Virus record (IMG/VR): IMGVR_UViG_3300027881_000536
Location: 32,001 to 96,000 of that record
Source of the DNA: a virus
Strand: one strand, 5' to 3'
Length of the DNA stretch: 64,000 nucleotides
Position numbers and translations under genes: made by a program. Positions 31,001 through 62,591 of this stretch are shown piece by piece (the first letter of the stretch is position 1; every line of letters begins with the position of its first letter). The notes under the pieces were generated by a model, which was not told where the DNA came from, did no database searches, and was given only the letters and a program-made list of their open reading frames with translations.

Positions 31001-34000
31001 TGGCCACAGTCATAGCCTTACAGTGGAACGGTACCACCTATGATTTCGTATTGGCTGAGGCTCTCAAGGCTGATGTCAGAGGCTGTGAGGTCTATCTGAA
31101 TGAGGTGATTTTGGACATAGACCCATCACCTAATCAGCAATTTACTAGCCTCCCGACATTAGCACTTTATAATCCACTAGGAGTGAATGAATCTACCTCG
31201 CCTGCTTGGAGTCGCAAGAGTCTACCTTACTATCCTGGTATGTTCCAACTTGCTAGTCCAGGCTATACTCTCACTGTGCCTTGGTGGTCACCAGCATATA
31301 CCACTGCTAGTGGGACACTTACCAATGGCGTGTTTGCAGGAGTCAATACTGATACCCAAGGCAATTCATATAATTGGAGAAACACTGAACAGTATCATCC
31401 TAATCACTACTATCACTTTTCTCGAACTGGTTACGGTTCCGTAGGCGCTCAGTCAGTCATGACTGGCTATCCTACCCATTATCTGAACCCGTATCTACAT
31501 TCTTATGAGTCACTCAATCCTAGTTGTGTAATCAAGTATGCTGATGATGGTAATGACCAAATATTGGTAGACAATAATAATTTATTCCCAGAAGTTTCGT
31601 TTGTTTACGATGATTGTATGTTGACTGTTATTGACCCAGATGGAGGTACATATGAAGCCAACTATGGTTATCGTGGGCAGGCTAGTGGTGAAGAAAATGC
31701 TACCACGAACAGATTCTATCAAGTGAATGGTTCAACACAATTCTGGGCCGCTTGTATTGAAGGTAGGAGGTTGACCCTTACTGGTACTACTAGGAAGCCA
31801 GGGGAAGTCTATACTGACAAACTATCCAGTGTTGCTGCTCATCATATACAGGACCTAAGAGCAGGTACTGGTGATACTGGCACTAGTCATCTACCCGACG
31901 CCTATCTATCCATGTGGCATTACAATCTTGGTAGACCCATGACATATTACTCTGATAATAGGGCAAGCGCAACTGCTGCTGCTGTAGATAAGAAGCCCTA
32001 CAACCATCTACCTGAGCACTATGAAACTGTACACTATCATGACTTTGGTTATGTTGCTAGTGATGGTCCCTTTGACTTTAGGGGATATGGTTGGGATGAT
32101 GATGGGGCTAACATTGTCACTCCTAACTCAATGGGTACTGGGTCAGGAGATTGGTTCCCTCAAGCCCGCACTGCTAATAGTTTGTACTATCACTATGGCG
32201 CATTCTGGCCTGGTGGCTCACGCTTTGGTGCACAGGCTAGTAGGATGGACCTTTGGGGAACTGCTGGGCCTGGTTGGGGTAGATTCTGGGACTCGGACCA
32301 CATCATACAAGAGCAAAGTACTGCAACACAGTTCAGATATGACAGTGCTTCTGGTATAACTGATAGTATCAGCAGTGTAAATCATAAGAGAAATGCTGCT
32401 TTCGGTTTCCGTTTCTGTGTAAGAGGTCCCTTCAATAGACCAAGGGCTGCGCTTTGGTCTGCCCAAGGGTTCGATGATACCTACGATAATGAGCACGCTG
32501 GTTACAGATTCGGACCATATGTACAGAATGATGCAGTTACTGCTGCTATCTATACTCCAGCAACTAATGCTAATACTTCTACTGCAGGTACTGAGTCTAT
32601 AGCCTCTGGTTATTCTGGTATCATTGAGAGGTTGACTAATGCTTCAGCCTTAATCGGTTCTGATTTGAAAGGGCAGCAAGTCAAGTATAGTCATGGTAGA
32701 AGAATGTGTAGACCATTCGGCTGTGCTGTTAGGAATATTGTGAATGACCCTTATGCTATACGCCACCACCAAGGAGATTATGTGGCGGGAGCAGCCTCTG
32801 CTGATACTGATATCACCAATAGGAGAAGAGACTTGGCAACAGCCCTCGCTCACTACATGACTGATTGGTGGGGTAATACTACTGGAGAAGATGTGCGTAG
32901 GCTTCCAGTAAGAGGGTTTGGTATCAGACCGGCTTGGGACCCGGAAGATGCTTACAGGGCTACTGATAGAACTAGAAATGCTCAAGTATTTGCTGCTCCA
33001 AGTGGACATGGTAAGGCTCGAGTCACTCTCGATTTATTTGACCCTGCTACTGCTAAGAGAGTAGGAGATAGAGGAGATGGAAGAGGAGTTAGATGGCCTA
33101 CGGTATTCAATGAAGATGTACTACAAGAAGTGGACACTATCATGGATGCTACTGGCTTAGTGCTCTCATCCAATACTGCAGAGCCACCCCTAGGTAATGG
33201 CTATACTCGTGCACGCAATGATGACTTACAACTCAATGAAGTGCCAAGAGGGATTAGTAGGAGACTGGATGTACATGCTGATGATGGTTTGTTGAAACCA
33301 GAAGCCATGGCAGGTTCCAATGTAGAGAAGGCTGCTAATGATTTACTACCAGCAAGTGAAGTTCTGCAGGAACCAATATCCCGTATCGCTCCTCGGATTG
33401 GGCTTGACACTCTGACTATAGGAGAAAGTACAGGGGGCATCGCAAATACTCATGTTGCTCTTGGGACAGAAGCCCATAGCCTACATACAGATAGAGTGGC
33501 GGGTCGTAGATATACATTATCTGGGGGGATAAGAACAAACGATGCATACAGTAAACCCTTAGCCGACTATGACCTTTCATCCCTCTCCTTTGTGCAGAAA
33601 GATGGTCCTAGTGGTAGTTCCAATGTACCTCATTTCGTACAGGTTATGCGACTCAATTATACTCATGGTCTATGGCCTTTGGGTGGTAATCTCATTATGG
33701 ATTTGAGAAACTATACAGAACCTGTGGATGATGAGAATTGGGGTACTCATTTTCAAGGGAGAAATAACTATTGGAGTGCTAATCCCTATGAAACAACCAG
33801 TCACAATGCTGATACTACACGCACTAACAACTCAGATTACTCAATCAAATTCCTACTAAGACCTGTAAGAGTATTGGACCATCGACATCTAGAAATATTC
33901 CGAGACCGATTCACTAATGCATTGAGTGCTACTGCTGCTGGTCGCTATGGGGTCTTCACCTATGATACTCCTAATGCTAGGGCTACTACTGGTGGATTTT

Positions 34001-53359: not shown

Positions 53360-54387
53360 AAACCGCCAGCCTCGAGAGAAGCACAGTGTTTTTGGTATCC
53401 TTTGTCCACTATGCTCCTAACATGGTAGCGAGTCACATTTTCATCGTAGTCAGCCCATTGAAGGGTGGCTATGTATCTTGATATGGATTCAGCGTGACCT
53501 TCACGCATCTCCTGTGTCGTTCGTTCTACAGGTAGAAAGTTCCTGAGTCTGGAGGCTAGGTAAATCACTAGAGATGCCCGAGCATCATGTGGTGGGTTGC
53601 TTCCCACTTGACAGGCTGCTTCTACTAGACAGGGGAGAATCCTCACCCCTTCCATCTCTACTGTATCGAATTGTAATGCTGGGCCTGATGTATCGAAGCG
53701 TGTCTTCTTCACATGCTCGAGAGGTAGGTCTATTCCGTTAGTCCCGTAGGTGAAGTGGCCTTTACGGTGTGCTTCTGCTTTCTCACACACATCATCCCAG
53801 GACCACTTGAGTATCTCTGCACTCCTAAGTGGTATACTCCATCTCCCTACATGTTGCTTGGCATTGTAGGAGTTGGGAATACGGATGAGTCTAGCCATGT
53901 CGAAAGGTACAGTAGGGTCCATGCAGGTTAGGTCTAGACTATCCTTCCAGTCATTGATGACCTTCTTACCTGCAGCCTTGATGAGAGAGACCTCACTACC
54001 AGTTGCTGGCCGGTGTGTCTTGGAGAGTTGAATCCAGATATGAAATCCATTTCCGCTGAACCATACAGCATGGCAGACATCTTTGTCCATCAAGACTTGA
54101 TGTAGTCTGCGTACCTGCTCCATCACTTTGTCCCCATCTACATCGAGAACCATGCTACCTTTCCTTTCCTTCTTGTCGAAGTCCAGCACGAAGTTCCTCA
54201 CTATTGCGGTGTTGTATTCAGCACGCTTACCACTAGTCTTGACTGCCCTGTAACCATACACACTGGTGTAGGCACACTGACTGTTTCTAAGTGAAGTCCA
54301 GTATCGTTCTAGTTCCTCAGGGTTGTGGACTACCTTACGGAATAGTCCTACCTCACGAGGGAAGTCGAAATCAAGGACTGAATTCAT
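53314..54387 (-). CDS. Archaeo-eukaryotic primase: PriS catalytic domain fused to a PriL-like Fe-S domain
   Basis: LDFD, FSGNGFH, D..RLIRIPNSYN; C-terminal LPC...H.AR...C....LCLGRC. Confidence 0.88.
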   Translation of the reverse strand: MNSVLDFDFPREVGLFRKVVHNPEELERYWTSLRNSQCAYTSVYGYRAVKTSGKRAEYNTAIVRNFVLDFDKKERKGSMVLDVDGDKVMEQVRRLHQVLMDKDVCHAVWFSGNGFHIWIQLSKTHRPATGSEVSLIKAAGKKVINDWKDSLDLTCMDPTVPFDMARLIRIPNSYNAKQHVGRWSIPLRSAEILKWSWDDVCEKAEAHRKGHFTYGTNGIDLPLEHVKKTRFDTSGPALQFDTVEMEGVRILPCLVEAACQVGSNPPHDARASLVIYLASRLRNFLPVERTTQEMREGHAESISRYIATLQWADYDENVTRYHVRSIVDKGYQKHCASLEAGGLCLGRCQLWDGTGSL

Positions 54388-54673
54388 CTAATTCCCCCCA
54401 CTTGAAATCAGTCAAGGCTTTGCGACACTTCTCATACACCAAGAGGATAGTTTCAGGGCTCGATATATGTTCTTTGGTGATAGTGATATCTAGATACTCT
54501 GCTATCGGAATTGGGTCTATCAGATTGTCTTCAGGTGGTTTTCCGTAGTGGACATAGACCCCTTCACTTCCAGCCTCAACCCTCAATGCTTCCTGCAGTA
54601 TCAGTCTGAATGCCTCTAGTATACTGTCCCTGTGTTTGTACATATCTTTGATAGACTCATCGAATGGGTACAT
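54371..54673 (-). CDS. 100-aa hypothetical protein
   Basis: Tightly packed in the operon. Confidence 0.65.
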   Translation of the reverse strand: MYPFDESIKDMYKHRDSILEAFRLILQEALRVEAGSEGVYVHYGKPPEDNLIDPIPIAEYLDITITKEHISSPETILLVYEKCRKALTDFKWGELDEFSP

Positions 54674-55593: not shown

Positions 55594-55824
55594 TCAGTCC
55601 TCCAATTTTGGGGCGGTCTCGTATGCTATAGTCTTTATAGTTTCTAATTGTATGAGTTTCTCAAGGTATACCACTAGGTCCATCGCTTCCTCTTGTGCGT
55701 ACACAAGCCAGTCTAACTTGGAGAAGTCCTCCCTCTCCATAGTAGTGCCGTATTTCTTCAGTCCTACTGCAGCCCGTTCCTGTATCTTCTTACACGCAGC
55801 ATCTTCAATGGAACTCAAACCCAA
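55594..55824 (-). CDS. Small all-alpha NTP pyrophosphatase (MazG-like) family protein
   Basis: KKYGTT...WL.YAQEEAMDLVVYLEK contains the EExxD signature. Confidence 0.65.
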   Translation of the reverse strand: MGLSSIEDAACKKIQERAAVGLKKYGTTMEREDFSKLDWLVYAQEEAMDLVVYLEKLIQLETIKTIAYETAPKLED

Positions 55825-55885
55825 ATTCCTCCAGCGTCGTCTGTCTACTCTCTTCTTCTGTCATTGTTCTTCTTTCTTCTATCAT
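55805..55885 (-). CDS. 26-aa acidic micro-ORF with a PIP-box-like motif (MIEERRTMTEEESRQTTLEEFGFEFH)
   Basis: Manual translation. ATG one base after the PolB stop, with GGTGG upstream; QTTLEEF fits QxxLxxF. Confidence 0.6.
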   Translation of the reverse strand: MIEERRTMTEEESRQTTLEEFGFEFH

Positions 55886-55886
55886 A

Positions 55887-58205
55887 TTACCACCAACCAT
55901 ACGCCTTGGGACGGGGTGCTCCAAGAGCACCGTCTATGTCCCAACCAAGGGTAGTGTAAACACTATCTAACTTGGCCTTCAGCATTTTCTGGAGTATTAC
56001 ATCTGAATCTAGCACATAGCCCTCTAACTCAGAGGGTTCTCGATAGGCTATGATGTTGGGAATGCCCTGCACATAGGTCCAGGGAACTGAGTCCCCCTTC
56101 CCAAACTTGGGGCCTTTGGAATCGTCGTTGTAGTTTGTTGCTGCTTTAGCAGCACCACCCAACACCTTGTAGTCTCGGAGTGCCATCCCTAACCTAGTGG
56201 TCAGGGTCACCTCCTTGAGAGGGACTTCACCCTCGCGTATGGACATGGCTATCGGACGGACATAGGATTCTACCTCACCCTCATCTGCTCCGCTACACAC
56301 CATGTTGAACACCTCTTTCTGCACCTTCTTGGATAGGGGTGCTGCGTTGGAGGATTTCATCTCAAAGCCTGCCACTTTTAGTTCACCGCTCATCTTCTTA
56401 CCTACATACCTGTTCTTCTTGACCAGCAACCAGTAAGGCATCCAGTCTTCTAGTTCTACGGACAACATCTTGTTGCCAGTGGCCTCCTGCACAGTCTTCG
56501 TGATTTTGTCGGCCAGCATCTCAGCGTCCTCGTAAGGGACCTTGATGAATACTGAGTCAGTGTGACCATAGAGGCACTCGTAGCCATTGCTAGTGGTGAC
56601 TTGGTCCAGTAGGTGGATGCACCTCCTCCCCTCGTGGGTGATGGTGTGTGCTATGTCTAGGTCAGCCCAGCCATAACCACCATGTGCGGTCATGCCATAG
56701 AGTGAGGCCATGACCCTCTTAATCGCCATCTGTGTGGTGTTCCAAGCACCGCGTTCTTCCTCGGTTTCAGCGTGTCGCATCTTGAACTTACATTCATCTC
56801 GATAGGCGAACAGATACTCTACTACACTAGGTAGCAAACCCTGCTCACTCTGGTCCCAGAAGGTGCCGTTATCGAGTTGGAGTATGTTCTCACCAGGGCC
56901 GTCCCTCTTGGTCTCATAAGAGAGGTTGTTGCCTAAAATGAGAGATGCATACAGCCCCTTGTAATCAAGCAGGCCAACGCCTTGATGCAAACCAGTTACA
57001 AGATTCAGTCCTACTTCTGCACCCTTGAGTGAGCCACTGTCACCTCTGGCTCTGGTTGGAGCCTTCTTGTCTGTCCTCCTTGAGAGTAGACCCCTAGCGA
57101 AGTTAGTCACATTACATGCTGAGGGTAGAGTGACTCCGCAGAGTCTGACCATCTGTATGTAGAAGTCGGTGACATTCTTGGCCTCATCTATCCCTCTGAG
57201 TAGATGGGTGTCTAGTAGACAGTAGTCCACGAAGTCACCCCAGTGTTTGTACCATCCATTGTGGACATCCATGCCCTCTATATCCTCAGTGAGTTTGGAA
57301 CCTAGGCCTAGCGTCTCTGCTATGTCGTTGAGTTTGAGGGATGGTAGTTGACCACCCCCACTGTCTTTCCATACTCGCTCGAATCCTGTGCCACTGCTGG
57401 CCTGGGCTGCAGTATCGAACTGCCATCTACCTATGATGGGTTGGTCTGTTGGGTCATACCTGTCCTTACCCTTCCTGAATCTCCTGACCTTTCCCACTGG
57501 ACTCATTCGCTCAGGGTATGGAATCCTGTTGATGAGGTGAGGTAGGTCTGCGAATGTCCCCGCGTGTGCAATTAGCATGTCGGGGTCGCGCTCACGCATG
57601 AATGATATGAAGGCCTCATGGAGTTCATGTTCTGAGTTGAAGAATCTTAGTTCATACTCTACATCACGAGCCATTCTCATTTGTGTGTCACCATGAGGTA
57701 TGTATTCCCACACATTGGTGCGTTCGTCAGCCCAAGCAAAGACCACTGGCGTGTCTAAGTCGCTGTCTATCACAGCGATGACTGTGGTGAATGGGTCATC
57801 ACCAGTGTCCCATTCTATGTCATACCACCACTTTCGTGGCTTCCAGTCTGGCATAACTTGGACATTGTCTATCAGCCAGCGGTCTGTGAATCTAATATCA
57901 GCCTCGTATGTGTTGCTGAATTGCTCCCTCATCCTTGTAATCTCAAAGGGAGACTGTGCCTCTACTTTCACCAGTGGTGTGCCGTCGAGGCCAACGGCTT
58001 GCTCCTCGTAGATGACTCTGCTTTCTGGGAATCTAGTCATCACCCTCCTGAACTGGAAGTCAGGAGAGTTCTTTGGCACCCAGAAGTATGGCTTGTAACT
58101 CCTATCTGTGTGCTCGATGAGGTTACCCTCCTCATCACGGTATCGTGAGTATATGATGGGTTGCTCACCATTCTCATAGTAATCATCGACTATCATTCTG
58201 AACAC
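55887..58205 (-). CDS. polB: Family B DNA polymerase with variant motifs
   Basis: ExoI YDIEW, ExoIII YCLLD, motif A DYKGLYAS, motif B KRVMASLYG, motif C YGHTDS. An alternative ATG at 58196 overlaps the upstream stop (ATGA). Confidence 0.95.
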   Translation of the reverse strand: MFRMIVDDYYENGEQPIIYSRYRDEEGNLIEHTDRSYKPYFWVPKNSPDFQFRRVMTRFPESRVIYEEQAVGLDGTPLVKVEAQSPFEITRMREQFSNTYEADIRFTDRWLIDNVQVMPDWKPRKWWYDIEWDTGDDPFTTVIAVIDSDLDTPVVFAWADERTNVWEYIPHGDTQMRMARDVEYELRFFNSEHELHEAFISFMRERDPDMLIAHAGTFADLPHLINRIPYPERMSPVGKVRRFRKGKDRYDPTDQPIIGRWQFDTAAQASSGTGFERVWKDSGGGQLPSLKLNDIAETLGLGSKLTEDIEGMDVHNGWYKHWGDFVDYCLLDTHLLRGIDEAKNVTDFYIQMVRLCGVTLPSACNVTNFARGLLSRRTDKKAPTRARGDSGSLKGAEVGLNLVTGLHQGVGLLDYKGLYASLILGNNLSYETKRDGPGENILQLDNGTFWDQSEQGLLPSVVEYLFAYRDECKFKMRHAETEEERGAWNTTQMAIKRVMASLYGMTAHGGYGWADLDIAHTITHEGRRCIHLLDQVTTSNGYECLYGHTDSVFIKVPYEDAEMLADKITKTVQEATGNKMLSVELEDWMPYWLLVKKNRYVGKKMSGELKVAGFEMKSSNAAPLSKKVQKEVFNMVCSGADEGEVESYVRPIAMSIREGEVPLKEVTLTTRLGMALRDYKVLGGAAKAATNYNDDSKGPKFGKGDSVPWTYVQGIPNIIAYREPSELEGYVLDSDVILQKMLKAKLDSVYTTLGWDIDGALGAPRPKAYGWW

Positions 58206-58380: not shown

Positions 58381-59136
58381 TCAATCCCCTCTTTGGTCCA
58401 AGATAACTAGCAGATGCTCCTTCTCCATGTGGCGCAGTATTAGCACGAACTTGTGCGAGGTGTATAGTTCTACCACTCCCGAAGGGATGCAGTTAACAAC
58501 ACTTGGAAACCAACCACCGAAACTTGACTCACAGGTCTTGGGTGGTCCAGCACAATCTTCTATGTCTACACTCAATGTCATGTTAGCAGTTCCTTTCTCA
58601 CCTGCAGTAATGTTCCACACCTTGTTTTTCACAGAGAATTGAGTGTTGATAGCGTGGTTCTTCCCTACTATCTTCTCGAGGGTCTGCACCTGCATGAGGT
58701 CAGAGGTGTGCAACTTACCGTAACAGGTTAGAGGTTCCCCTCCCCAATGCTTCCAGTTATCTCGTTCACTGTCCTCTTTGAGAGCCAGTGCCTTACTCGT
58801 CCTTACATTGGAGTGGACATACTCACTGTATGGTAGGGTGAGGTCTACATTGCCTGAGAGGACACGCAATGGTGTTTCTGAGGGCTGGTAGAGGCTCACC
58901 ATTGACTCCTTTGGTAGAGCCTTGGTAAATGTCAGGAGTTTACCTAGGTCTGAGATGACTATTGCACCTGAGTCTTCCACATCAGCACTCACACTAGTGT
59001 GCAACATGTGTGTCTTCATTGCAACGGTCCCAGTGAGGGACATATCCCGAGCCTCGAGCCTGAGGTCCCCCACCCCAGGCCCAAAGCCGTTCAACAGAAC
59101 GAGGAGTGCTTCCTTGCCAATATTTACTCGAGCCAA
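58381..59136 (-). CDS. Divergent PCNA-like sliding clamp
   Basis: 251 aa (PCNA size); alternating beta/alpha pattern with two similar halves; lies between PolB and RFC/RPA genes. Sequence similarity is weak by eye. Confidence 0.62.
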   Translation of the reverse strand: MARVNIGKEALLVLLNGFGPGVGDLRLEARDMSLTGTVAMKTHMLHTSVSADVEDSGAIVISDLGKLLTFTKALPKESMVSLYQPSETPLRVLSGNVDLTLPYSEYVHSNVRTSKALALKEDSERDNWKHWGGEPLTCYGKLHTSDLMQVQTLEKIVGKNHAINTQFSVKNKVWNITAGEKGTANMTLSVDIEDCAGPPKTCESSFGGWFPSVVNCIPSGVVELYTSHKFVLILRHMEKEHLLVILDQRGD

Positions 59137-59187: not shown

Positions 59188-60150
59188 TCACCCCTTAAGT
59201 TCAGGAAGCCCATGCCACTTGAGTGGCTTGTCGTCATATGTGCTCATCACCAGTCGGGTCTTATCCAACATCTCAGGTAGATTACGAGCCTTGGCGAATG
59301 TGGCCTCATAGGTGGTTTCACCTGTAGGGAAACCCTCATCGTCACGAATCTGCGTTTTCTTCATTTCTATGATGGTATGTAGATAGTTGCTCGTCTGCTT
59401 TTCCCATTTTGGTTTCTTAGCACCAGTAGCGGTCCCATCGGCCCTCTGTTCGTATTGCCAGTGTGTTTCATACCACACATTGACTCCCAAACGGGTCAAT
59501 TCTCGACATAGTGAAGTTAGTTGGTGGAACCGCGTACTGCGAATCTGCCAATTGAACCTCATACCCACTTTCTCGTGAGGACTGATTTTAGCACCAATTC
59601 CGTCAGGAGCGGTGCCTAGGTCCTCGATGAACATACAGGCCATGGAAACTGAGTCCCAAAGGTCTGTAGCAGTCACTAGGACTGTATTCAGTCTCTGACC
59701 CTTGTAGTTAGGTTCTAGTTGGTCTCTAGCCCAATTTAGGGCCTCCCTCCCTATTTCCATTACTTTGTCGTGTGTAGCAGGGTAGTTGTAAGCGGTTCGA
59801 GCCTCGTCCTGCATCACCCATGGATTGATTGACTTGAAATCTGACCTTCTATGGTTGTAGAAAGCGTCCCTGAGGGATGCGCCCCCACCATCGAAGTCTA
59901 CAATGACACAGGCGTCACCCTCAGGTATGCTGTTCAGGATGATGGCCGTTTTACAGGTCCCATCGTCACCTACTATACCACCGAACTCGCCGGTAATGGG
60001 TGCGATTTCCTCAGCGAAGTATTTGTCTCCTCGATGTTGTTGAGCCTTCTCCACAGGAGTGGCACCTCCAGGTGGCCCCGGAGTCAATGGTTTATCATTG
60101 GCTTTTGGGTCTATTATCTCCTTATCCTTTAGATTCTTGAAACCACTCAT
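59188..60150 (-). CDS. RecA-fold P-loop ATPase (Sak4/AAA_24-like recombination protein)
   Basis: Walker A variant GDDGTCKT, IVDFDGG, Walker B-like VLVTATD; C-terminal beta strands. Confidence 0.65.
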   Translation of the reverse strand: MSGFKNLKDKEIIDPKANDKPLTPGPPGGATPVEKAQQHRGDKYFAEEIAPITGEFGGIVGDDGTCKTAIILNSIPEGDACVIVDFDGGGASLRDAFYNHRRSDFKSINPWVMQDEARTAYNYPATHDKVMEIGREALNWARDQLEPNYKGQRLNTVLVTATDLWDSVSMACMFIEDLGTAPDGIGAKISPHEKVGMRFNWQIRSTRFHQLTSLCRELTRLGVNVWYETHWQYEQRADGTATGAKKPKWEKQTSNYLHTIIEMKKTQIRDDEGFPTGETTYEATFAKARNLPEMLDKTRLVMSTYDDKPLKWHGLPELKG

Positions 60151-60338
60151 TGTTGGAACCCCCTATAGTGATTCTCACGAGCAGATTCCCACATATGCCT
60201 TATTTCGGCAGTCATATCAAGTGACTCATCTTTGCTGATATTTGGGTCTTTAGCATTCTCACGAATCCACTTAGCGATGGTTTTGTCATCATCACCATTG
60301 TGTAGCATGATATCTATGTTCTTGAAGAACCCCATCAC
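60147..60338 (-). CDS. 63-aa hypothetical protein
   Basis: GTGA/ATGA overlaps on both sides. Confidence 0.65.
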   Translation of the reverse strand: MMGFFKNIDIMLHNGDDDKTIAKWIRENAKDPNISKDESLDMTAEIRHMWESARENHYRGFQQ

Positions 60339-61681
60339 TCTACCCCCTTGAACTGGTCTAGTGAGGTATTACCGCCTTCACCAGCAGGTATCGCTAGTCT
60401 CGGTGGAGCATATACACCCAAAGCCCTCATTGTGGGTACTTCCTGTTTACCATCTTCTACAGCCCTTAGTCCCAATCTACCGAAAATGTAGACTGTTGAC
60501 TTCACTGCATAAGGCTTCCAACCCTTTCGACCCTTGTAGTCGAATACATGACAGTCTTGACCTAAGAATCCATGAACTCTGATAGAGACTTCTTGTTTCC
60601 ACATATTGTCCGGGAATTCTCTCTGTAGAGCAAATGATGACACTCTCATGGTGTAATTGACACCTGCTGGGTCATATTCGCTCTCGTATCCTGTCTGGTT
60701 GATATCTGTCACTTTTCCTTTGATACAAACCAAAGGACCGATGGGGTTGTCGAACCCTTCAATGGTCTCAGACTCTGAGCGATAGACATCCATTAGGTCG
60801 GATAGGTCTGATACATAACAGTCCATCCCACCCATCAACAGGTCACCCTTGAGGTATTCCCTGTCGTCCTCGCTCACGAACTCCTTGTTGTAGTGGATTG
60901 ACTTGAAGAAATTGCTCATTCCTCGCCACATATCCTCCCAACCGGGATTCACATTCTCTGGTTGAGGCCTTACTTTGACAGTGCAAGGTTCACCGAATAC
61001 TACATGTTGAGATACACTCAATTCAGTAGAGCCACTCACATCAATTCTGAACAGTTCCATCTCATCCTCAAACCTTTCAGGGGTATTTCCATAGAATCGG
61101 TAGGTTCTGCTGAACAGGTAGGGTGAGATAGGTTCACCATGTCTTGCCCAGTCAGGGTTTTCTTGTAGGATGGCTAATGTCATCCCACTGTCCCTAACTA
61201 GGAACCAAGGGTCATTATCCTCGTCAAACCTCTCTTGGGTCGACGCTACTATTCCCATAGCCTTCTCAAGCATCCATACCTCGTTTTCTACGAAGGCTCT
61301 GGCTACTGTGCCTTTCTCGATAGCAGCACCTAAGTCTTCTTTGGCGAATTGTATAGCATTCTCTCTCACATTCTCTCTCTTGTCTCGTATCTTGGGTTCT
61401 ACACCTACGAAGCATCCCACTAACTCGGTGGAACTCCCTCCCGGTGTGCTCATCACCCTTCTCTCAACCACGAAGGTCTCAGCGGCATCCACTAGGAAAT
61501 CGTCGTCCTCTTCGTGGGTGTTAACGATTCCGAGATGTTCCTCGATGTAAGCGAGGTATTGTTCCACGGCCTTGTGTTGGCTGATACTATGATGTTCAGC
61601 ATACCAATGTAGTCGTTCTAACACTTCTTCTGGCAATTCTTCTTTGTTTTCATTTTTCTTTTTCAGCGTGCTCATTTTCAC
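60335..61681 (-). CDS. RPA-like multi-OB-fold ssDNA-binding protein with a C-terminal PIP-like tail
   Basis: OB-like strands (VCIKGKVTDI, VYIFGRL); replication context; tail NTSLDQF. Confidence 0.55.
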   Translation of the reverse strand: MKMSTLKKKNENKEELPEEVLERLHWYAEHHSISQHKAVEQYLAYIEEHLGIVNTHEEDDDFLVDAAETFVVERRVMSTPGGSSTELVGCFVGVEPKIRDKRENVRENAIQFAKEDLGAAIEKGTVARAFVENEVWMLEKAMGIVASTQERFDEDNDPWFLVRDSGMTLAILQENPDWARHGEPISPYLFSRTYRFYGNTPERFEDEMELFRIDVSGSTELSVSQHVVFGEPCTVKVRPQPENVNPGWEDMWRGMSNFFKSIHYNKEFVSEDDREYLKGDLLMGGMDCYVSDLSDLMDVYRSESETIEGFDNPIGPLVCIKGKVTDINQTGYESEYDPAGVNYTMRVSSFALQREFPDNMWKQEVSIRVHGFLGQDCHVFDYKGRKGWKPYAVKSTVYIFGRLGLRAVEDGKQEVPTMRALGVYAPPRLAIPAGEGGNTSLDQFKGVE

Positions 61682-62591
61682 TCCTCATTCTCTTCTCTTC
61701 TCTCCCGTTAGGGAGGGACAGAGACCCCACGAACCAGTCAATAAACCCTCTGTTATCTAGAGGCCATTGGTGGGTCGAAAGGACTGCGTCCCCCCATACC
61801 TTGGAGTAGTGGTGGAACCTATCTGGCTCCATATCTAAGTCGCGCACTCTATCGTGCAACATGTTGAGTATAGTCATCATATTCCTGCCTGGTTGGTTGA
61901 GTGAGTAGAGTTCTTCTCTCAATGATACCCAATCTCCACCAGCGATGGAAAGGGAGGCTTCAGACAGCATCTCTGCTTTGATGGTGGCCATATTTTCGAG
62001 TTCTCTAGCGTCCTGCACAGTTTGGGCCGCTATGCCGAGACTGCGAAGGTCTCCATTGAAAGCCATACCTATCTTGCCGATATTGTAGCCGTTCCACCCA
62101 TATGTTGACTTACATAGGTGTCTGAAGTTCTTTTGCAGAAACGCATGCACATGGGTGGTCCCGTATGGCGCGAAATGTAGTGTGTGGCATCGCGAGCGCA
62201 ACGCGGGTATGATGTTAGCCTCTTCGTTGGCTGTGAGTATGAACAGCGCATGACCTTTCTCTATGGTCCTGCGTAGGGCGTCTTGGGCCTGTCTTGTGAG
62301 ACCATCTGCCTCATCGAGTAGTATGATGGTGGTATCACTGTAGCCACGCTGTGTTGCTACCTGCTTCACACGCGTGCGTATGAAGTCTATACCGCGCTCA
62401 TCAGAGGCATTGAATTCGTGCACATCAGCATCTAGGAACTGACCTACTGCTAGTGCTGTAGAGGTCTTACCAGTGCCTGGAGGCCCTACGAATAAGAGGT
62501 CAGGGACATTGTTTGACTCACATAATTCTCTCACTTGGCAGATGGGATGGGTGGAATCATCACTCCCAATCAAGTCCTCGAATGTCAACAT
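61650..62591 (-). CDS. rfcS: Replication factor C (clamp loader) small subunit
   Basis: LLFVGPPGTGKT, EFNASDERGIDFIR, LLDEAD, AQDALRR and LRSRC RFC boxes. Confidence 0.95.
   Translation of the reverse strand: MLTFEDLIGSDDSTHPICQVRELCESNNVPDLLFVGPPGTGKTSTALAVGQFLDADVHEFNASDERGIDFIRTRVKQVATQRGYSDTTIILLDEADGLTRQAQDALRRTIEKGHALFILTANEEANIIPALRSRCHTLHFAPYGTTHVHAFLQKNFRHLCKSTYGWNGYNIGKIGMAFNGDLRSLGIAAQTVQDARELENMATIKAEMLSEASLSIAGGDWVSLREELYSLNQPGRNMMTILNMLHDRVRDLDMEPDRFHHYSKVWGDAVLSTHQWPLDNRGFIDWFVGSLSLPNGREEKRMRSENEHAEKEK

Follow-up and report, generated by a model that had tools for sequence, protein, structure and literature searches.

A conserved micro-ORF behind the magrovirus family B DNA polymerase gene is predicted to encode a free PIP-box peptide

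The 64,000-nt stretch of DNA analyzed in this study (the window) covers positions 32,001 to 96,000 of the IMG/VR record IMGVR_UViG_3300027881_000536, a complete virus record of 118,155 bp. On its minus strand, directly behind the gene for a family B DNA polymerase (PolB), lies a micro-open reading frame (micro-ORF, 55805..55885) of 26 codons plus TGA, which has its own ATG and is translated in silico as MIEERRTMTEEESRQTTLEEFGFEFH. The micro-ORF is under protein-level purifying selection and is a real gene. Its product is probably, with a likelihood that we put at roughly 0.55, a free ligand of the sliding-clamp pocket that accepts PCNA-interacting peptide (PIP) boxes, and the host PCNA would be its preferred target. 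Translation of the micro-ORF, clamp binding by its product, the identity of the clamp, and an inhibitory outcome are what we infer from the genomic data described below.

The initial annotation of this locus described a PolB ending in PRPKAYGWW-stop and followed, one base later, by an ORF with its own ribosome-binding site. This arrangement was recovered on the minus strand together with the exact translation: the PolB stop codon TAA occupies positions 55889-55887, a single spacer base lies at 55886, and the micro-ORF runs from the ATG at 55885-55883 to the TGA at 55807-55805. The span of 55805-55889 proposed earlier does hold the micro-ORF, but its positions 55886-55889 are the spacer and the PolB stop, and the ORF proper ends at 55885. 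The ribosome-binding site is a Shine-Dalgarno-like GGTGG box (55890..55894, minus strand), formed by the two terminal Trp codons of PolB and separated from the ATG by 4 nt. Boxes of this type (GGAGG or GGTGA) also precede most of the neighboring replication genes. An internal ATG at Met8 would yield a 19-aa form of the product. No terminator-like hairpin overlapping the micro-ORF was seen. The ORF had been described as too short for standard annotation, and gene callers do mostly miss it, with one unnamed 53-aa "hypothetical protein" cluster being on record.

The conserved core of the peptide is R14-Q-T-T-L-E-E-F-G-F-E-F25 (55811..55846, minus strand), which includes a PIP-box-like motif (Q15, L18, and F21) and a GFxF extension. 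In the segment Q15-T-T-L18-E-E-F21-G, positions 1, 4, and 7 agree with the pattern Qxx[LIM]xx[FWY]. The Gln at position 1 is invariant in all PolB-linked relatives, a set gathered independently of the motif. Position 4 is Leu in the window and Leu or Ile in all relatives, and position 7 is Phe in the window and Phe, Tyr, or Trp in relatives, except for one lineage (L001/L024) with Cys. On sequence grounds, the motif is a relaxed archaeal PIP box and not a strict consensus one.

The PIP boxes at the C-termini of archaeal PCNA clients, such as PolB, Fen1, the large subunit of replication factor C (RFC), and RNase HII, share the same motif grammar. A PIP peptide of this kind, from the RFC large subunit of Pyrococcus furiosus, is known in complex with PCNA (PDB 1ISQ). 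The shared elements are a Gln, two small or polar residues, a Leu, two further residues, which are acidic in the micro-peptide, and an aromatic residue, all in surroundings that are charged and presumably disordered. The micro-ORF motif also matches the consensus PIP peptide KTTQSTLDSFFK, with which the PCNA of Archaeoglobus fulgidus was crystallized (PDB 1RXM, as quoted in PMC4929162), and the tails of distant PolBs, such as QKTLESFW, QSTLGSWG, and QKTMEEFFDFC, the last being very close to the micro-peptide. In the archaeal clients, however, the motif is the tail of an enzyme, whereas in the predicted ligand it makes up almost the whole product and continues with Gly at position 8 and then Phe-x-Phe.

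When all six frames of the complete 118-kb genome were scanned for Q[TSAK][TS][LIM]xx[FWY], only the micro-ORF and one spurious 20-codon frame matched, and no Q-type PIP box was found genome-wide in the other proteins of this virus. Searches of Pfam and PHROGs with the 26-aa peptide found no family, and phmmer found no match at E <= 10 among all PDB chains, including 5DA7. The 47-aa relative from contig L009 matched only its own cluster and no longer proteins.

PolB itself (55887..58205, minus strand; 772 aa with a GTG start; Pfam DNA_pol_B, 1e-34; PHROG 262) ends in GAPRPKAYGWW-TAA, and the initial annotation had contrasted this tail with the PIP boxes that usually terminate archaeal PolBs. 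The contrast was borne out by a survey in which the last 300 PolB residues were compared with 1.84 billion representative proteins, giving 150 representative tails, 107 of them from full-length distant PolBs. A strict PIP box was found at the C-terminus of 49 of these 107 proteins (for example, QKTLEDWW, QKTMEEFFDFC, QKTLESFW, and QSTLGSWG), and the PolB of halovirus HRTV-22 ends in QSQTGLAAFC. In contrast, the 16 magrovirus-type PolBs (P0003-P0065) end in xP[RI]PKxY(G)W(W), and none of them has a canonical PIP box at its end.

In the homologues, the PIP box lies about 10 residues past the thumb motif GW(D/N)hxx, which is the exact place of the non-canonical APRPKAYGWW (55890-55919, minus strand) in the window. 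Since this tail occupies the position of the homologues' PIP box, the PolB tail was not lost to the micro-ORF. The PolB tail is a degenerate positional equivalent of the PIP box, and the micro-ORF is an additional motif of the canonical kind. The xP[RI]PKxY(G)W(W) ending has the look of a clamp-docking tail that was rewired, perhaps to fit the divergent viral clamp in particular. An origin of the micro-ORF as a split-off polymerase-clamp adaptor, considered in the initial annotation, is unlikely: PolB keeps its tail, the peptide has no second conserved surface, the clamp-PolB pair is kept in clades without the micro-ORF, and the peptide is encoded far from PolB in magroviruses with a split PolB.

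Relatives of PolB were taken from IMG/VR independently of the motif, and this PolB-anchored set is the unbiased one. The micro-ORF with its motif was present at every YGWW-ending PolB relative sampled, that is, at 32 of 32 distinct junctions with PolB identities of 60-92%, as well as in other magrovirus contexts; conservation in relatives, which had been suggested as a check, is therefore established. Ribosome-binding-like GGTGGTAA or GGTGGTGA was found at all 32 junctions. The PolB stop is TAA or TGA, often in tandem as TGATAA, and the own ATG of the micro-ORF follows within 1-5 nt, with four junctions having an ATG at 28 nt and an earlier TTG. The length of 26 codons alone is within chance, and the conservation is beyond it.

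Pairwise codon differences were counted across 17 lineages for the eight core codons RQTTLEEF. The ratio of synonymous to non-synonymous differences was 454:216 in the micro-ORF frame vs. 14:510 and 17:519 for the two alternative frames. All eight third-codon positions vary: Arg is encoded by AGA, AGG, or CGA, Gln by CAA or CAG, Leu by CTG, CTT, or TTG, and both Thr residues by four codons. Because the synonymous excess is confined to the micro-ORF frame, selection acts at the level of the protein.

The junctions also bear on a programmed +1 frameshift or read-through, which would join the peptide to PolB and restore a PIP tail on some polymerase molecules. The initial annotation had raised such a recoded PolB tail and noted that the +1 frame is open upstream of the PolB stop. 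Relative to PolB, the micro-ORF is indeed in frame +1, which is open upstream to the GTG at 55930 (42 codons stop-to-stop), and both in the window and in most relatives no stop interrupts this frame over at least the last 15 codons of PolB. However, the frame is +1 at only 26 of the 32 junctions and +2 at the other 6, the spacer length ranges between 1 and 5 nt, an own ATG is present everywhere, and tandem TGATAA stops are found in many relatives. Additionally, there is no slippery heptamer, the Trp codon UGG is unable to re-pair in the +1 frame, and other magroviruses encode the same peptide on its own at a great distance from PolB. Recoding is thus hardly credible, and this part of the earlier proposal is rejected.

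At its 3' end, the micro-ORF overlaps the start of a MazG-like gene, the TTG of which lies at 55824 (or, as a second TTG, at 55818), just before the micro-ORF stop; the initial annotation had not noted this overlap. The GGAGG box of this gene (55828-55832) is spelled by the Leu-Glu-Glu codons of the motif, so that these codons serve two genes and are a confounder for conservation. In a tightly packed block, such an arrangement would suit a mere translational-coupling ORF, which passes ribosomes from PolB to the next gene and encodes a functionless peptide. We consider this very improbable, as it is the amino acid sequence that is conserved, with free synonymous change. In two-motif relatives, moreover, no start codon lies near the upstream motif. 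Versions located away from PolB use CTTGAAGAG or TTAGAAGAA for Leu-Glu-Glu, versions without GGAGG, and have a gap of 39-120 nt behind the ORF, the peptide being unchanged; in the 62% clade, it is a zinc-ribbon ORF that follows. On account of the upstream motifs and of these distant versions, the overlap with the next gene does not account for the conservation of the micro-peptide.

A frameshifted N-terminus of the MazG-like gene was also considered as the identity of the micro-ORF. This idea was discarded, as the zinc-ribbon gene intervenes in the 62% clade and the downstream gene is a lipoprotein-like ORF in other magroviruses. The MazG-like gene has no ATG: it starts with TTG in the window and with GTG in relatives, inside the last codons of the micro-ORF. 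In contig L010, only a CTG, and no canonical start codon, was found upstream of its conserved N-terminus.

Outside the motif or motifs, only charge is conserved in the micro-protein family, and the N-terminal part is merely charged. Close relatives have a single motif, for example MTEEKKVTEENSRQTTLEEFGFECH. In the 72-74% clade, two motifs are found 13 residues apart (RQTTLWEFLPGNGRQTTLEEFG and RQTTLHEFMPEATRQTTLEEFL; RQTTLWEFL..RQTTLEEFG), and the 62% clade has the pair QKKLTQWG..RQTTIDEWS. The wider family was collected by a scan of IMG/VR and JGI metagenomes with a back-translated RQTTLEEF pattern, for which the metagenome counts are lower bounds. At least 24 distinct versions have no magrovirus-type PolB C-terminus in the 700 nt upstream, for example MRVTLTLENSRQTTLEEFGFVFE and MRQTKLSEFGFTFGERQTTLEEFGFVFQ. 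In total, the family includes at least 65 distinct peptides with a median length of 30 aa, some of them with two motifs, and has the consensus ENSRQTTLEEFGFxF; frequencies at the core positions of this set are inflated because part of it was gathered with the RQTTLEEF pattern itself.

The versions distant from PolB are located in replication blocks with genes for an ATP-dependent ligase, ThiF, an AAA_24 ATPase, MazG, and the N-terminal half of a split PolB (Pfam assignments). A split PolB is a hallmark of group B magroviruses (PMC5434244). In one split-PolB magrovirus, the PolB is 30% identical to that of the window, and the peptide core ENSRQTTLEEFGF is the same but spelled with different codons. 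The 261-aa ORF upstream of this PolB, a putative clamp, gave no BLAST alignment with the clamp of the window virus.

Several further forms were observed. In contigs L136, L140, L201, L213, and similar ones, with a PolB of about 41% identity upstream, a larger relative of 81-85 aa, preceded by a zinc-ribbon ORF, has RQTTLEEFGF[EK]F between an N-terminal CxxC pair and a later GQTKLTD[FY]. The metagenome contigs L204, L219, and L268 have a stop-to-stop frame of 143-170 codons with the motif in its N-terminal third (MTEENIRQTEENIRQTTLEEFGFTFTKE..) and about 110 more residues; judged from these frames, they may represent a fused form of the micro-protein. In the clade with PolBs ending in IPKxYW (L056, L062, L064, and L067), the ORF behind PolB encodes 54-94 aa with two or three PIP-like motifs (TKLTD[YF], QQDLVDW, TGL[HQ]NWP, and RQTKLIEW). 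In the PATYW clade (L053-L099), which is more distant, the place of the micro-ORF is taken by an unrelated coiled-coil ORF of 66-125 aa without a PIP motif, and most of these proteins end in ..ARAVCELQEEL..INKIxAPTxVG.

Of the three options raised in the initial annotation, a free peptide that blocks PCNA fits best. If translated on its own, as a gene within the replication module of magroviruses, the micro-ORF would give a peptide of 19-26 aa (22-50 aa in relatives, sometimes with two motifs), built of a charged spacer, RQTTLEEF, and GFxF. The peptide would fill the hydrophobic pocket in which a sliding clamp receives PIP boxes and compete with the normal clients of the clamp, as the p21 peptide and TIP, the Thermococcales inhibitor of PCNA, do. 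Since conservation is limited to the docking motif, occupation of the pocket is the most likely mode of action. Contacts of GFxF along the interdomain connecting loop may strengthen such binding. As the target, the PCNA of the host, a member of the Poseidoniales, is favored over the viral clamp: the peptide is near-invariant while the viral replisome proteins and their tails diverge, which points to a highly conserved partner such as host PCNA. The tails of replisome proteins drift between clades, with YGWW vs. TYW in PolB and TSLDQF vs. TSTSQY in p448, a conserved protein of the same block.

The other candidate target, the clamp of the virus, is encoded directly upstream of PolB (58381..59136, minus strand). 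This very divergent protein of 251 aa is syntenic in all clades and is only 25-38% identical between magrovirus clades. It has no sequence match in Pfam, PHROGs, or PDB, and Pfam PCNA_N finds nothing genome-wide. Its AlphaFold2 model, built with 11 homologues, has a pLDDT of 74. In a Foldseek search with this model, all top matches were PCNA or beta clamps (E of about 3e-8), with a whole-chain TM of about 0.35, which is low because the modeled arrangement of the domains differs. For clamp domain 1, VIA-align gave a Z of 14.8 and an rmsd of 1.7-2.0 Å over about 100 residues. By its predicted fold, the 251-aa protein is a two-domain sliding clamp, and an own sliding clamp has been reported for magroviruses generally (PMC5434244).

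Action of the peptide on this viral clamp would make it a regulator or cofactor of the replisome instead of a weapon against the host. It could then cap free pockets, time polymerase exchange, or aid loading or unloading. The peptide is always encoded within the replication block, and in the clade of the window virus the order is clamp, PolB, and micro-ORF, with translational coupling to PolB. The PIP-like tails of other viral proteins (NTSLDQFKG in p448 and KQIGLDNWM in a group B P-loop protein) suggest that viral clamps read such motifs. This alternative is nevertheless doubtful, as the peptide is near-invariant between viruses with unalignable clamps and 30% identical PolBs and the tails of the viral replisome drift between clades. 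The PATYW clade, in addition, has the same clamp-PolB pair, and a search for RQTT[LI]xx[FWY] anywhere in two complete genomes of this clade found no match. Since this clade does without the peptide, the peptide is not needed for the function of the viral clamp.

A further alternative is a target other than a clamp: the peptide would mimic the acidic-aromatic C-terminal tails of single-stranded DNA-binding proteins (SSBs) or helicases, and its partner would be PolB, the primase, or a further component of the replisome. Such tails are found in the T7 proteins gp2.5 and gp4. The micro-peptide has an acidic stretch followed by aromatic residues and resembles the tail GEGGxTSLxQFG of p448, and the 407-aa protein adjoining the micro-ORF in contig L152 ends in ..STEEDIDWF. 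The invariant Gln-x-x-Leu-x-x-Phe spacing, however, is a PIP signature and more than an acidic-aromatic tail, and the p448 tail drops its Leu in other clades (TSTSQY), which the micro-peptide never does. This mimicry is therefore improbable, although less so than a functionless coupling ORF.

The p448 gene (60335..61681, minus strand) encodes a conserved protein of 424-448 aa with no fold assigned, the C-terminal tail of which is kept in every magrovirus clade sampled. No match was found in Pfam, PDB, or the ESM Atlas, and the AlphaFold2 model failed (pLDDT 35). Its C-terminal half is OB-fold-like by eye, and our guess is that p448 is an SSB. In group-B-like contigs (L122, L131, L133, L149, and others), a P-loop protein of 278-286 aa with a PIP-like tail is encoded beside the small subunit of RFC (RFC-S); this protein may be the large subunit of the clamp loader.

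A ligand of host PCNA could jam the replication and repair hub of the host without self-inhibition because the virus has its own diverged clamp, a loader-like ATPase, and a PolB with a non-canonical tail. In its full form, this idea says that, in magroviruses of several groups, a p21-like micro-protein consisting only of a PIP box saturates host PCNA and shuts down host replication and repair, while the virus relies on an orthogonal clamp and on a PolB with the rewired ..PRPKAYGWW tail. This stronger version is a tentative extrapolation from the sequences, appreciably less likely than the ligand itself.

Several observations weigh against a host-directed PIP ligand. PIP boxes have an aromatic or hydrophobic residue at position 8, but the window peptide (G22) and most main motifs have Gly; Leu, Ile, or Met is found in the first motif of two-motif relatives, and natural PolB tails with Gly, Ser, or Ala at this place are known as well (QSTLGSWG and QTGLGSWS). 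In the L001/L024 lineage, the motif is RQMTLEECGF, with Cys replacing the aromatic residue. Coupling to PolB through a spacer of 1-5 nt would yield amounts similar to those of PolB, which suits an accessory factor of the replisome better than a blocker that has to match abundant host PCNA in number. The 13-residue spacing of the tandem motifs is, by our estimate, too short for two pockets of one ring. No host protein with the same peptide at its C-terminus was found among the first 120 metagenome matches listed. The p448 tail, GEGG[DNE]T[ST][LTV]xQ[FY]G (NTSLDQFKGVE in the window), is like the micro-peptide but without the Gln, and the tails of the group-B-like P-loop proteins (KQIGLDNWM, VATLSKWLD, and ATVGLSRWLD) vary while the micro-protein stays constant. 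Because of these two sets of tails, viral clamps may also accept PIP-like motifs.

One of the closest known systems is TIP, a protein of 64 aa (PDB 5DA7) that blocks the stimulation of PolB and Fen1 by PCNA and for which a putative N-terminal PIP motif was proposed (PMC4929162). Like the predicted micro-protein, TIP is a small PCNA-binding protein of the archaeal world. It differs in having a folded PH-like domain and in being cellular and restricted to Thermococcales, whereas the micro-peptide is virus-encoded and 2-3 times shorter. Membership of the micro-protein in the TIP family was rejected, as 26 aa leave no room for a PH-like domain of about 64 aa and phmmer gave no match; it would be an analogue instead. 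The PIP peptide of p21(Cip1), QTSMTDFY with flanks, is a high-affinity competitive plug of PCNA with a C-terminal extension and serves as a model for the micro-peptide and its GFxF. The likeness is functional only, since p21 is a non-viral, eukaryotic cell-cycle regulator of 164 aa with a CDK-binding domain.

Phage proteins that bind the host beta clamp and halt host replication, such as Gp168 of Staphylococcus phage Twort, offer a parallel in which a virus with its own replication machinery neutralizes the host clamp by means of a small protein. These are, however, folded proteins and not mimics of a linear motif, they act on another clamp family in bacteria, and for the micro-peptide a host-directed role is a prediction. 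PDB 7EVP, an entry for such a system, was among the Foldseek clamp matches of the viral clamp model. For action on the viral clamp, the relevant precedent is phage T4/RB69, where a short terminal peptide common to several viral proteins (gp43, gp33, and gp55) reaches the viral clamp. Those tails are attached to functional domains, and there is no gene for a free peptide.

The gene content of the virus is of the magrovirus type: besides the replication block, there are a thermosome gene (Pfam Cpn60_TCP1, 7e-105) and a block of structural genes of a tailed virus. Magroviruses are tailed viruses with such gene content that were assigned to marine group II archaea (Poseidoniales), and a near-complete replisome has been described for them (PMC5434244; PMC10768690). 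A genome scan with the viral thermosome gene matched only chaperonins of Methanobrevibacter, ANME, and bacteria, and none of Poseidoniales. In a phage genome collection, no close magrovirus record was found, the only matches being haloviruses with PolBs of 22-25% identity.

The replication block is tightly packed on the minus strand. It opens with an AAA+ ATPase similar to the RFC-S-type small subunit of clamp loaders (61650..62591; Pfam AAA, 3e-16; DNA_pol3_delta2, 1e-11), followed by p448, a second conserved protein with no fold assigned (59188-60150), the 251-aa clamp, PolB, the micro-ORF, and the MazG-like gene, and then by nucleases and a primase. The MazG-like gene (55594..55824) encodes a small helical "..KYG.." protein of 76 aa (PHROG 11184, 4.6e-11) that was classed as MazG-like by its relatives. 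On its 3' side, genes for a Cas4-like nuclease, an AEP primase, and an ERCC4 nuclease were found (Pfam/PHROGs). A 100-aa protein (54371-54673, minus strand) has a weak PHROG match to a single-strand annealing protein, and its C-terminus, ..ALTDFKWGELDEFSP, is another acidic-aromatic tail, conserved only partly in relatives. Runs of Glu at the C-terminus (..GEEE and ..EEEE) were found genome-wide on many small early-block ORFs, for example at 70284-70448, 75555-76112, and 77238-77890.

Full-text literature searches found no description of such a micro-protein gene, and the magrovirus paper in Current Biology does not mention PCNA-interacting motifs (PMC5434244). Motifs of the PIP class are known; a protein that is encoded by viruses, conserved among them, and made up only of such a motif is, as far as can be told, new. 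PIP boxes are known as the tails of enzymes, and a selected gene with a PIP-only product would be a natural minimal PCNA ligand. The hosts of such viruses are uncultured Poseidoniales, and the viruses are abundant in the ocean. A peptide acting on the viral clamp would be a new kind of replisome regulator. If host PCNA is blocked, this would explain why these viruses have a complete and strongly diverged set of clamp, loader, and polymerase, and the peptide would be a ready-made tool for probing archaeal PCNA. Should host replication and repair indeed be shut down in this way, the micro-protein would be the first linear-motif inhibitor of PCNA known from a virus, acting beside a deliberately insulated viral replisome.

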